From IMG/VR virus record IMGVR_UViG_2693429549_000020, positions 1-9,017 of that record: a DNA stretch of 9,017 nucleotides. One strand, written 5' to 3'. The notes under the pieces were generated by a model. The model had not been told where the DNA came from. It saw nothing but the letters and a program-made list of their open reading frames with translations, and ran no database searches. Positions 6,078-9,017 of the stretch are shown one piece after another (within the stretch, counting starts at the first letter, position 1; every line of letters begins with the position of its first letter). The position numbers and the translations under genes were made by a program. The stretch is from a virus (taxonomy: Duplodnaviria > Heunggongvirae > Uroviricota > Caudoviricetes).

Positions 6078-6335
6078 ATGCACACATCAGGAAAATTTAA
6101 CAATCAGAAGAAATCACATAACCGCGCCATTGACCTTACAGAGCACTGGCTGAGGGTGGCGATAAAAATCATCGACCGCAACGCGGGAGAAGGATACGCG
6201 AAAGCACATCCTGAACTGATAAGCGCATTCATGACCACGGCGGCAGCAAACTTTGCCACGCTGACAGAACGGGAGATTGCCGAAGCGGAACAGGTGACAA
6301 CCATCAATGTTAAAACCGGAGAGCAGACAGCATGA
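6078..6335 (+). CDS. Hypothetical protein (85 aa), first gene of the ssb operon
   Basis: ATG at 6078 with SD GAGGGGG upstream. Its stop overlaps the ssb start (ATGA at 6332-6335). No recognisable motif. Confidence 0.55.
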   Translation: MHTSGKFNNQKKSHNRAIDLTEHWLRVAIKIIDRNAGEGYAKAHPELISAFMTTAAANFATLTEREIAEAEQVTTINVKTGEQTA

Positions 6336-6754
6336 CAGCACAGATAGCGGCTTACGGGCGGCTGGTGGCTGACCCGCAGTTAAAGACCACCAGCAAAGGG
6401 ACACAAATGGCGATGGCGAGTATGGCGGTTCCCCTGCCGTGCAGCCAGGCAGATGACGGAACGGCGACGATGTGGTTATCTGTCCTGGCGTTTGGCAGAC
6501 AGGCCGACGCACTGGCAAAGCACCACAAAGGCGAACTGGTGAGCGTGGCGGGTAACATGCAGGTAAGCCAGTGGACAGGCCAGAACGGCGAAACGCGGCA
6601 GGGCTGGCAGGTTATCGCAGACAGCGTAATCAGTGCGAGAACGGCGCGACCGGGCGGCAAAAAAGGCCAACAGGGGCAGGCTACTGATGCACTGAGCAGA
6701 GCAAAACAACAGGCGGGAAATGATGATCCGTACGGGGATAACATACCGTTTTAA
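6332..6754 (+). CDS. ssb: Single-stranded DNA-binding protein (SSB-like OB fold with acidic C-terminal tip)
   Basis: 140-aa product. The N-terminal region follows the E. coli SSB pattern (YGRLVADPQLK ... WLSVLAFGRQADALAKHHKGELVSVAGNMQVSQWTGQNGETRQGWQV). There is a Gly/Gln-rich linker and a C-terminus DDPYGDNIPF resembling the SSB DDDIPF tail. Confidence 0.8.
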   Translation: MTAQIAAYGRLVADPQLKTTSKGTQMAMASMAVPLPCSQADDGTATMWLSVLAFGRQADALAKHHKGELVSVAGNMQVSQWTGQNGETRQGWQVIADSVISARTARPGGKKGQQGQATDALSRAKQQAGNDDPYGDNIPF

Positions 6755-6769
6755 GCAACGAGTAACAGA

Positions 6770-6796
6770 AGCCGGAGCAATCCGGCTTTGTTGTGT
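6770..6796 (+). terminator. Intrinsic terminator after ssb
   Basis: 7-bp stem AGCCGGA (6770-6776) / TCCGGCT (6781-6787), loop GCAA, followed by the T-rich TTGTTGTGTCTG. Confidence 0.7.
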
Positions 6797-6894
6797 CTGA
6801 ATCTGATTAATCTGTTTTTATGATAGAAATATATTTATCTACCACTTTTATCGATCAATAATGTGCACAGTTTAGTCAGTAAGAGGAAGTTACT

Positions 6895-7104
6895 GTGAGT
6901 TGTATTAATGACCTGAACACGGGCGATATCAGGGGTGGTTCCGTTCATCTGGATGCGCAGACCGTTATGCGCCTTAAGCAGTACAGGATCGACCATATAA
7001 ATCATCATCCTGACCAACCATTACCAGGTGTGGCGCAGATTGTCAGACACGCAGTTAACGCGTGGCTTGATAAGAATAGTTTTGCATCTGGGGGTGAGCA
7101 ATGA
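6895..7104 (+). CDS. Small RHH-like protein (69 aa), coupled to the protease-capsid gene
   Basis: GTG start at 6895 with SD AAGAGGA 7 nt upstream. The product has a beta/helix/helix-like layout (GGSVHLDAQTVMRLKQYRIDH ... GVAQIVRHAVNAWLDK). Its stop overlaps the next start (ATGA at 7101-7104). A candidate -10 TATGAT at 6819-6824 lies upstream. Confidence 0.5.
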   Translation: MSCINDLNTGDIRGGSVHLDAQTVMRLKQYRIDHINHHPDQPLPGVAQIVRHAVNAWLDKNSFASGGEQ

Positions 7105-9017
7105 ATCGCTGGTACACCATTAAAGCGGCGGATGTTCGCGGAACGGCGGAGATATCCATCTATGAGGAAATTGGTGGCTTTGGTATTACCGCGAAGCAGT
7201 TCACGGAAGACCTGAAAGCCCTTGGCGATGTTTCACATATCAATCTGAGGATCCATTCACCAGGTGGCGACGTGTTTGAAGGTATCGCCATCTATAACCT
7301 GCTACGGAATCATCCGGCAGACATTACGGTTTATATCGATGGCGTGGCGGCTTCAATGGCTTCGGTCGTCGCAATGGCTGGCGATCGCGTTGTTATGCCG
7401 GAGAACGCCATGATGATGATCCATAAGCCGTGGGGTATCTCTGGCGGAAATGCTGGCGATATGCGTGATTATGCTGATTTGCTGGATAAGGTGGAAACCG
7501 TGTTAATCCCTGCTTATGCCAGAAAAACGGGCAAATCAGCACAGGAAATTGCCACCATGCTGGAAGATGAAACCTGGATGGATGGGAAAGAATGCCTTAA
7601 GCACGGTTTTGCTGATGAATTGTTGCCATCTGTCAGAGCAATGGCGCGAATTGAATCGAAACGTACAGGAGATTTTTTACATATGCCGGAAACCATTAAG
7701 GGAATGATTACCCCGCCGAAATCACAGGCAAAAAACACCATTACAGGCGACCAGGAGCGCATTAACGGCATTAAAGAAATTTTTAGCGTGTTCGGCAACC
7801 AGTACGACGGGATCAAAATGTCGTGCCTTGAAGATGCGTCCTGTACGCTGGAAATGGCCCGTGAACGCCTGCTTAACGAAATGGGTAAGAACCACACACC
7901 AACCAATAAAAATATTCCGTCTCATATCTATGCCGGAAACGGGAACATAACAGGCGATGCGATTCGCCAAGGGCTTTATTCCCGTCTTGGGTATGAGCGT
8001 CCTGAGCGGGGAAATCCTTACGCGATGATGAGCCTTTTTGAAATGGCCCAGGCATCACTAACTGATCGTGGTATCACTGTGAACGGTTTTATTAATCGCT
8101 CGCAGGTTGTTAATGCGGCTTTTACACACAGCAGCAGCGATTTTTCTCATATTCTGGCTGGTGGGGCTGAAAAATCTGTACTGAAAGGCTGGCAGGACAG
8201 CGGCGAAACGTTCCAGAAATGGACGCGTACCGGATCGCTTTCAAACTTTCATGAAGCAAAGCGCGTTGGTCTGAATGGTTTTTCAAAGCTGGATAAAGTA
8301 CCGGAAGGCGCGGAATATAAATACATCACCACCAGCGATAAAGGTGTGCCTATTGCGCTGGCCACGTACGGGAATATTTTTTCCGTTACCCGTCAGGCCA
8401 TTATCAACGATGACCTGACCCAGTTAACTACAATCCCCATGGCGATGGGGCGTGCAGCCGCCAGAACAGTAGGTAATCTGGTGTATCTCCTGTTAACCGG
8501 CAATGGCAAATTCACGGATGGTAAGGCGCTATTCCATGCCGATCATAAAAATCTTATTGCGAAGGATATGGACATGGAGGGGCTTAACGAAGCCCGTAAG
8601 CTGATGCGCCTCCAGGAGGACGCTAACGGTGATTCGCTGAATATTACCCCCGCATTTGTCCTGGTCCCCGCCGCGCTGGAGTCTGCCGCACATCGCGCCA
8701 TTCTGTCATCGTCATCACTCTTTCCGGTTGATGGTGAGGGCACTATCAATCAGAACCCCGGCATCATTAACGTGGTGAAAGATATGGCAGAAGTAATTGT
8801 TGAGCCACGTCTTGATAAGGCCAATAGCAAGGAATGGTATGTAGCCGCAGCTAAGGGGATGGACACGATAGAGGTCGCTTATCTTGACGGTATTGATACG
8901 CCATATCTTGAGGAGCAGGAGGGTTTTACTGTTGATGGTGTCGCATGGAAGGTGCGCATTGATGCAGGTGTCGCGGCCCTCGACTATCGCGGATTACTGA
9001 AATCGAGTGGAGCATGA
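7101..9017 (+). CDS. ClpP-like prohead (head-maturation) serine protease fused to a probable major capsid protein
   Basis: 638-aa ORF ending with TGA at the window edge. The N-terminal ~190 aa match ClpP-family signatures (IHSPGGDVFEGIAIYNLL, GVAASMASVVAMAGD with the catalytic Ser, MMMIHKPWG with the catalytic His). The C-terminal ~400 aa are assigned as capsid by size and context (inference). An internal in-frame ATG at 7683 with SD CAGGAG sits at the domain boundary. Confidence 0.8.
   Translation: MNRWYTIKAADVRGTAEISIYEEIGGFGITAKQFTEDLKALGDVSHINLRIHSPGGDVFEGIAIYNLLRNHPADITVYIDGVAASMASVVAMAGDRVVMPENAMMMIHKPWGISGGNAGDMRDYADLLDKVETVLIPAYARKTGKSAQEIATMLEDETWMDGKECLKHGFADELLPSVRAMARIESKRTGDFLHMPETIKGMITPPKSQAKNTITGDQERINGIKEIFSVFGNQYDGIKMSCLEDASCTLEMARERLLNEMGKNHTPTNKNIPSHIYAGNGNITGDAIRQGLYSRLGYERPERGNPYAMMSLFEMAQASLTDRGITVNGFINRSQVVNAAFTHSSSDFSHILAGGAEKSVLKGWQDSGETFQKWTRTGSLSNFHEAKRVGLNGFSKLDKVPEGAEYKYITTSDKGVPIALATYGNIFSVTRQAIINDDLTQLTTIPMAMGRAAARTVGNLVYLLLTGNGKFTDGKALFHADHKNLIAKDMDMEGLNEARKLMRLQEDANGDSLNITPAFVLVPAALESAAHRAILSSSSLFPVDGEGTINQNPGIINVVKDMAEVIVEPRLDKANSKEWYVAAAKGMDTIEVAYLDGIDTPYLEEQEGFTVDGVAWKVRIDAGVAALDYRGLLKSSGA

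Follow-up and report, generated by a model that had tools for sequence, protein, structure and literature searches.

[quoted passage not shown] For the island EcCICFT073, induction, replication and packaging were shown to depend on a helper phage, and its cloned rep gene together with a putative ori site drives plasmid replication in E. coli; neither ssb nor a small ORF is mentioned for this cloned segment (PMC6092414). [quoted passage not shown] The literature that we searched contained no experiments on a PICI SSB or on the 85-aa protein described below.

We analyzed a stretch of 9,017 nt (the window), in which genes for an 85-aa protein with no assigned function and for a compact SSB follow a replication origin. 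EcCICFT073 (CFT073, NC_004431.1 1384284-1384948) contains the same pair, C_RS06990/C_RS06995, with the same 4-nt overlap and in the same place, after pri and a 288-nt spacer with TGTCTACC-type iterons; primase and iteron type agree with those of the window. The EcCICFT073 85-aa ORF is identical to the window protein at 76/85 positions, and the Shine-Dalgarno-like sequence in front of it is identical in both islands. Its SSB belongs to the same clade and ends in DDIPF, but is 136 aa long and differs in the linker segment. Downstream, EcCICFT073 carries PerC and lambda-type capsid and decoration genes, whereas the window carries a protease-capsid fusion. Neither C_RS06990 nor C_RS06995 is named or tested in the EcCICFT073 literature searched. 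The pair was also found in a capsid-forming PICI of O157:H7 with a DUF927 primase and in an island with a RepA-type helicase. It lies inside the best-studied Gram-negative PICIs.

Organization of the island and its replication region

The window is a single long series of plus-strand genes, in the order int, AlpA gene, P4-type immunity RNAs, DUF4222 gene, D5/P4-type primase-helicase gene, iteron origin, 85-aa ORF, ssb, terminator and capsid genes (Table 1). The primase-helicase matched phrog_864 (DNA primase) with E=2e-167, and scored 106.7 bits against TIGR01613 (P4-family primase C-terminus), below the cut-off of 108.7.

Table 1. Positions of genes and signals in the window
Feature	Position	Strand	Match or remark
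Tyrosine integrase (int)	1-1239	+	
AlpA-family regulator	1562-1858	+	
Icd-like ORFs	between AlpA and DUF4222 genes		
DUF4222 protein	3756-4043	+	
Primase-helicase (Pri-Rep), 582 aa	4040-5788	+	Pfam D5_N, DUF5906, Pox_D5
Iteron-type replication origin	5790-6040		repeat search
Shine-Dalgarno-like GAGGGGG, purine-rich	6060-6066	+	11 nt before ATG of 85-aa ORF
85-aa protein, no assigned function	6078-6335	+	phrog_1231
Shine-Dalgarno GGAGAG of ssb	6318-6323	+	in 3' end of 85-aa ORF, 8 nt before ATG
Compact SSB, 140 aa	6332-6754	+	PF00436, TIGR00621
ATGA overlap, ssb start codon/85-aa ORF stop codon	6332-6335	+	
Intrinsic terminator, GC-rich hairpin then TTTGTTGT	6768-6797	+	terminator scan
Small ORF	6895-7104	+	
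ClpP-like prohead protease/major capsid fusion	7101-9017	+	

Based on the integrase, AlpA, DUF4222, the D5/P4-type primase, the ClpP-protease/capsid fusion, the iterons and the cspD/yljB-clpS layout, we conclude that the window is a Gram-negative PICI. The gene set (int, alpA and pri-rep followed by an iteron origin, all in one direction) agrees with the definition of these islands, as does the size: in annotated E. coli genomes (locus L002) the island measures ~10 kb, within the usual range of about 10-20 kb, and sits between cspD/yljB and clpS. Annotated copies list int, an HTH regulator, Icd-like, DUF4222, primase, a hypothetical protein, SSB, the protease-capsid fusion and DUF1441. The assignment to phage satellites made in the sequence-only reading is thereby borne out, by the PICI gene set, the iterons and the gene-for-gene parallel with EcCICFT073. 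The gene set of capsid-forming PICIs (capsid, protease, portal, head-tail connectors and terminases) is incomplete in loci L001 and L002, where the late region consists only of the protease-capsid fusion, DUF1441 and one or two small hypothetical ORFs; the complete set is present in other islands with the same 85-aa ORF/ssb pair.

The 289-nt spacer after the primase gene contains the 8-mers CTGTCTAC and GGTAGACA six times each, and the origin is made up of direct and inverted (C)TGTCTAC(C)/GGTAGACA copies around an AT-rich stretch. The Pri-Rep product is what fires this origin, which precedes the 85-aa ORF and ssb. A promoter scan of the plus strand between origin and 85-aa ORF did not yield a sigma-70-like promoter, so that read-through from the primase operon is the simplest assumption for transcription of the two genes. 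Across related loci, CCGGAGAG is the commonest Shine-Dalgarno sequence of ssb, and CCTGAGAG accounts for a large minority. The overlap of the two ORFs and the geometry of this Shine-Dalgarno sequence suggest that their translation is coupled. The terminator hairpin begins 14 nt past the ssb stop codon and is followed by a T-rich run (fold -18 kcal/mol, z=-3.0). From the overlap, the Shine-Dalgarno sequence and this terminator, we conclude that the 85-aa ORF and ssb are the last two cistrons of a unit that begins upstream and closes at the terminator. The region is best explained as the last part of an early (replication) operon in a Gram-negative PICI, and the two genes would then be expressed early.

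Properties of the SSB and of the 85-aa protein

The 140-aa protein was identified as an SSB by PF00436 (E=4e-16, 59.3 bits, cut-off 26) and TIGR00621 (60.9 bits, cut-off 53.95), and solved SSB structures (PDB chains) matched it down to E=2e-10. An OB fold (residues 5-99) is followed by a short variable linker of ~30 residues and the acidic tip DDPYGDNIPF, as expected from the earlier description of a compact SSB with an IPF-type end. It shares with E. coli SSB the OB fold, in which W48, F54 and W81 correspond to W54, F60 and W88, and the acidic C-terminal tip with its IPF end. The two proteins are, however, only 26% identical, and E. coli SSB is longer (178 aa), has a linker of ~60 residues and is encoded on the chromosome rather than on a satellite. 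Three of the four ssDNA-stacking aromatics are kept, while the W40 position is a Gln and His55 is replaced by Leu. Tetramer formation and the binding mode of this putative ssDNA-binding protein are not certain, given the low identity, the lack of a W40 equivalent and the Leu in place of His55.

Like conjugative plasmids and phages (phrog_44), the satellite has its own bacterial-type SSB with a host-compatible tip (E=6e-40 against phrog_44). SSBs from plasmids can complement ssb mutants of E. coli. Among 50,697 phage records, the best match to the 140-aa SSB had less than 32% identity. The clade to which it belongs is specific to satellites of Enterobacterales and always adjoins the pri-ori region. 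Among 52 distinct sequences from related loci, SSB lengths were 136, 140, 141, 144 and 149 aa; all of these length variants end in D[DNEG]IPF except the 144-aa form, which reads DDETPF. The gene is under purifying selection (dN/dS ~0.16, pairwise, 57 alleles), and a few of the related loci carry truncated ssb pseudogenes. Within the PICI replication module, this SSB is nothing unusual: it has been annotated before and is present in model islands.

The 85-aa ORF is a real gene and not a chance ORF: its product matched phrog_1231 (E=9e-48, 79/83 profile positions covered), it has 168 close homologues, it is under purifying selection (dN/dS ~0.17, pairwise, 46 distinct alleles), and the other two frames are interrupted by stop codons. 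The previous proposal of a genuine small gene overlapping ssb is hence confirmed. A basic, variable N-terminus of ~20 aa precedes a conserved helical-hairpin core with the tip loop GxGYAxxHPEL. AlphaFold2, run on the family alignment, predicted a two-helix hairpin (helices 5-36 and 45-75; mean pLDDT 79.6, above 90 through the core), and the invariant motif of the family is located at the tip of the hairpin in this model.

Profile search of 1.84 billion representative proteins extended the family to 750 representatives at E<=1e-3. Members are 60-130 aa long and have the common core A-I-x-x-ID-x-x-FG-x-GYA-x-x-HPELIAAFM-x-TAA, in which A41, H44, P45 and L47 are invariant (73 sequences). The 85-aa protein is a full-length member, and the predicted hairpin is common to the family. 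What sets the Escherichia subfamily apart is a conserved C-terminal extension, TLTEREIAEAEQVTTINVK, and the adjacency to SSB; most other members have neither. Named sources are Nitrosomonas, Comamonas and one Methylovulum metagenome-assembled genome (MAG), the remainder being mostly metagenomic, and a narrower alignment searched against a genome collection retrieved only Shigella and one Methylovulum MAG. The 85-aa protein had no match in Pfam, NCBIfam or PADLOC; a Pfam scan of 29 family members gave scattered chance matches only, a profile search of PDB sequences nothing credible, and structure searches with the model only uncharacterised phage proteins or generic hairpins. A locus giving the context of one protein, P0129, was sought and none was found.

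The genomic contexts of distant members are mixed. In L125 the order is DUF5906 primase, family member, antiterminator Q; in L167, L172 and L176, a Zn-ribbon/Toprim/DUF927 primase is followed by a small ORF, the family member and, further on, capsid genes; and in L083 (Nitrosomonas), AlpA is followed by the family member and, further on, by a DUF927 protein. These are satellite-like or integrative elements. In the prophages L084 and L103, the member lies downstream of a CI-type repressor, and the other distant contexts have no recognisable replication gene nearby. None of the ~20 distant members examined has an adjoining SSB. We conclude that the family is a wide group of unannotated mobile-element proteins that recurs just after primase-helicase genes. 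The CI-repressor and non-replication contexts fit a general accessory gene equally well as a role in replication.

Distribution of the pair and the position before ssb

The window region was matched in 1762 of 5426 complete E. coli genomes, and 2347 of the 2350 places are chromosomal. Of these genomes, 1638 contain the core of the 85-aa ORF and 1783 the SSB OB domain; ~30% to a third of complete E. coli genomes carry the pair, often in several copies. In 80 of 82 loci, fetched by the small ORF or by DNA similarity, an SSB homologue begins at the small-ORF stop codon, and 84/86 loci of the enlarged set have an intact ATGA overlap. A point mutation in L187 makes the small ORF end 11 nt before ssb; in L188 and in the Shigella locus L095, a 101-aa ORF is inserted between the two genes; and in L028 and L029, ssb is deleted while the 85-aa ORF is retained, with the same terminator hairpin directly after it. 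These deletions, together with the ssb pseudogenes, indicate that the SSB is dispensable at least for persistence of the island.

The surroundings of the pair vary considerably. At least four primase C-terminus/iteron types were found around it (GGTAGACA/CCTCTACC, GCGGGTTA, GGTGAACA and AAGTGGGG), and the primases of loci that keep the pair are 26% to 98% identical to that of the window. The block of small-ORF core and ssb is thus common to islands with different replication types and also with different late regions, in which the capsid fusion of the window may be present or absent. The first ~20 residues of the 85-aa protein covary with the primase/iteron type, while the core is constant.

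This covariation bears on the proposal that the 85-aa protein works with the primase-helicase or the iterons (as a helicase loader or in the control of copy number, for instance) and that its adjacency to ssb is incidental. The basic character of the N-terminus would suit such a role, as would the family members found immediately behind primase-helicase genes, or close to them, in unrelated satellites (L125, L167/L172/L176, L083). Linkage alone could nevertheless explain the covariation, which would arise equally from recombination with a breakpoint in the 5' end of the gene. At least four primase families that recognise different iterons occur together with the one conserved core, and many family members have no primase nearby. 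Moreover, the EcCICFT073 rep gene with its putative ori site supports plasmid replication, with the small ORF unmentioned (PMC6092414). We therefore regard a function as replicon cofactor as improbable.

The comparison was extended to a sister branch of satellites. In L186, an SSB of this branch (70% identical) directly follows a TOPRIM-DUF927 primase and a spacer with GAGACAAC iterons. A scan with the L186 SSB gave 80 loci, 72 of which were interpretable, that is, had a large upstream ORF and the SSB at the expected place. Representatives from six loci, identified by exact look-up, place the clade in Klebsiella, Raoultella, Enterobacter, Leclercia, Citrobacter, Pluralibacter, Pectobacterium and Serratia. 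When these loci were searched with a profile of the 85-aa family, only 2/80 had a member at a distance of up to 3 kb. The arrangement of primase, iteron spacer of at most 400 nt and ssb, with no ORF in between, was found in 57/72 loci, and a further 13/72 have other small ORFs here (69, 100, 105, 126 and 132 aa), unrelated to one another, whose ends reach or overlap the start of ssb. Their annotation is hypothetical protein, and of four that were looked up, three occur on more than 500 contigs. The SSB, which comes after pri-ori in PICIs and capsid-forming PICIs across this order, is therefore the constant feature of the Enterobacterales PICI replication module, whereas the position before ssb is variable. 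In L253, a distant member of the 85-aa family (~35% identical) lies between origin and ssb, which shows that the family entered this slot at least twice.

Because of the near absence of the family from the sister loci and of SSB next to its distant members, we conclude that the two proteins are not an obligate pair and that the genes are independent of each other. The conservation of the 85-aa ORF with ssb, which the sequence-only reading named as its own touchstone, holds for Escherichia and Shigella but does not extend to other Enterobacterales. The proposed functional pair is thus supported in part only, and it can be regarded as a unit within Escherichia and close relatives only, ssb standing alone after the origin in most sister loci. 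It also appears unlikely that the 85-aa protein serves the satellite SSB as a dedicated chaperone, loader or regulator, with the stoichiometry of the two set by coupled translation. Such a partnership would account for the retained overlap, the similar genome counts, the similar purifying selection on both genes, their staying together despite changing primase alleles and downstream cargo, and the family member just upstream of the SSB in L253. It is at odds with the bare ssb genes of the sister clade, L186 among them, with the unrelated small ORFs in the same coupled position, with the 101-aa ORF that can be inserted between the two genes, with the persistence of the 85-aa ORF after loss of ssb in L028 and L029, and with the ~20 distant members that have no SSB nearby.

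Proposed roles and significance

We consider it somewhat probable that the SSB is a replication accessory supplied by the satellite and that the 85-aa protein is an optional occupant of the variable slot. For the latter, an optional accessory function in the replication or early module is most likely, rather than an obligate partnership with the SSB.

The C-terminus of E. coli SSB binds and recruits partner proteins of the host, among them the chi subunit of DNA polymerase III. By analogy, we propose that after induction of the island by the helper phage, its self-loading helicase-primase would open the origin and the island SSB would coat the exposed single strands, with the acidic ...IPF tip recruiting host SSB-binding proteins, for example DNA polymerase III chi. 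In this way the island would be provided with SSB of its own in the phase of burst replication, in which helper and satellite may compete for host SSB. The SSB would be accessory and not essential in this scheme, as the cloned rep gene and putative ori site of EcCICFT073 replicate a plasmid, with ssb and the small ORF unmentioned (PMC6092414). Should this rep-ori segment really be sufficient for replication, the scheme would not explain what selective benefit the SSB brings.

An alternative is a function in the conflict between phage, host and satellite, with the SSB, the slot protein or both acting as decoy, as trigger or shield for SSB-sensing defence, or in interference with the helper, and with the slot as a small hotspot. 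Phage SSBs are reported to be triggers or cofactors of Retron-Eco8, AbpAB, Hna and DRT10. The slot holds at least five unrelated small ORFs across lineages, a pattern typical of accessory hotspots, and variable sites of this sort tend to collect counter-defence genes; the relatives in L084 and L103 occupy a position that is often that of accessory genes expressed in lysogeny; and close relatives of either protein were absent from 50,697 deposited phage genomes (no DNA match, and no match to the 85-aa protein). On the other hand, PADLOC gave no match for either protein, no defence gene adjoins the pair, the SSB retains the features expected of a working replication SSB, its gene lies in the replication operon beside the origin, and the PICI literature searched holds no experimental hint of a conflict role. 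We consider such a function doubtful, and the decoy or sensor role suggested for the pair in the sequence-only reading is speculation. It seems very unlikely that the slot proteins, comprising the 85-aa family and unrelated proteins with 69, 100, 101-105 and 126-132 aa, almost all of them putatively coupled to ssb in translation, tune or shield the satellite SSB.

Returning to the SSB as replication accessory and the 85-aa protein as optional slot occupant, two modest observations are new. First, the small ORF is part of a large family with no entry in Pfam or in any other of the annotation libraries searched. Second, the slot between origin and ssb is variable, and its occupants nearly always overlap ssb. 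We find this slot, and the 85-aa family with its strikingly conserved hairpin-tip motif, more interesting than the original claim of a pair. If the slot proteins did act on the SSB, they could conceal it from SSB-sensing immunity, for example Retron-Eco8, Hna or AbpAB, or change its choice of host partners, and the 85-aa hairpin would be the founding example of a widespread group of proteins that modulate SSB or the replisome. Should the SSB enhance replication of the satellite, it would contribute to the ability of these islands to out-replicate their helpers and to disseminate virulence and defence genes.

Candidate regulators and small RNAs

A putative regulator of 63 aa is encoded in the window by the only well-supported gene on the minus strand. 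The score of this HicB/Arc-like protein falls narrowly below the Pfam HicB cut-off of 21 bits (Table), and its RefSeq counterpart carries the name YlcI/YnfO family. We propose that it may act as a repressor-side regulator of the island.

Three small RNAs, isrK and two C4 antisense RNAs, were identified on the plus strand. They look like the immunity RNA elements of P4-type, which were described in some Gram-negative PICIs (PMC10111431). All three are enclosed by two long predicted ORFs, and these ORF calls may be spurious.

Location of the features in the window and in related loci fetched for comparison (L numbers, local coordinates; L001 is an annotated RefSeq E. coli copy of the island)
Feature	Location	Strand	Match or source
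63-aa HicB/Arc-like protein	window 2201-2392	-	Pfam HicB, 20.4 bits; phrog_228
Long ORFs	window 2474-3073 and 3024-3530
isrK	window 2642-2718	+	Rfam, above gathering score
C4 antisense RNA, first	window 2743-2830	+	Rfam, above gathering score
C4 antisense RNA, second	window 3220-3308	+	Rfam, above gathering score
57-aa ORF	L001 14047-14220; window 6835-7017	-	RefSeq copies
69-aa ORF	window 6895-7104	+	phrog_4934, E=4e-31
ClpP-protease/major capsid fusion	window 7101-9017	+
PGWW...W...PV family, 100-105 aa	L188 3686-3991; L095 7276-7581; L193 and L264, upstream of ssb
126-132-aa hypothetical protein	L202, L203, L226, L231, L232, L236, L251 (2606-3004)		Klebsiella satellites
Two 85-aa family copies on one viral contig	L097 2563-3149 and 6001-6255
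85-aa family member near CI repressor	L084 4816-6213; L103 and L106, upstream of the match
Decayed island, strain VL40	L001 9167-13000

Late region of the island

The 69-aa ORF and the protease-capsid fusion gene meet at a second ATGA-type junction in the window, where the stop codon of the former overlaps the start codon (ATG) of the latter. At the same site the RefSeq copies carry a 57-aa ORF on the other strand, an annotation that is probably placed on the wrong strand. In the two annotated E. coli copies (L001 and L002) the whole late region consists of the fusion gene, a DUF1441 gene and one or two short ORFs for hypothetical proteins, a much smaller late gene set than that of capsid-forming PICI. 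Some other islands with the 85-aa/SSB pair (the overlapping 85-aa ORF and ssb) possess a complete head and terminase set, and some possess lambda-type capsid and decoration genes.

Small genes in front of ssb and the distribution of the 85-aa family

Two further small proteins are encoded in front of ssb. Genes of the PGWW...W...PV family either separate ssb from the 85-aa ORF or stand by themselves before ssb, and the E. coli form has records on at least 1000 contigs. In Klebsiella satellites, the stop codon of a gene for a 126-132-aa protein overlaps the start of ssb; this protein has records on more than 500 contigs and showed no relation to the 85-aa family.

The decayed island of strain VL40 carries IS421 and ISSso6 insertions, its primase is reduced to fragments and its integrase side is lost. 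Both the 85-aa ORF and ssb are still intact there, and the pair is identical to that of the window at the protein level. One viral contig (L097) contains a normal 85-aa/SSB pair, but with an SSB truncated to 120 aa, and, 3 kb downstream of it, a divergent family member (about 56% identical) without SSB that follows two paralogous 220-aa ORFs. This double copy may have arisen by internal duplication, or it may reflect two satellites in tandem.

On several prophage-like contigs, a family member lies shortly downstream of an S24/LexA-type CI repressor gene on the same strand, in one case (L084) with a HIRAN-domain protein encoded in between. This position downstream of the repressor resembles that of lysogeny-expressed accessory genes.
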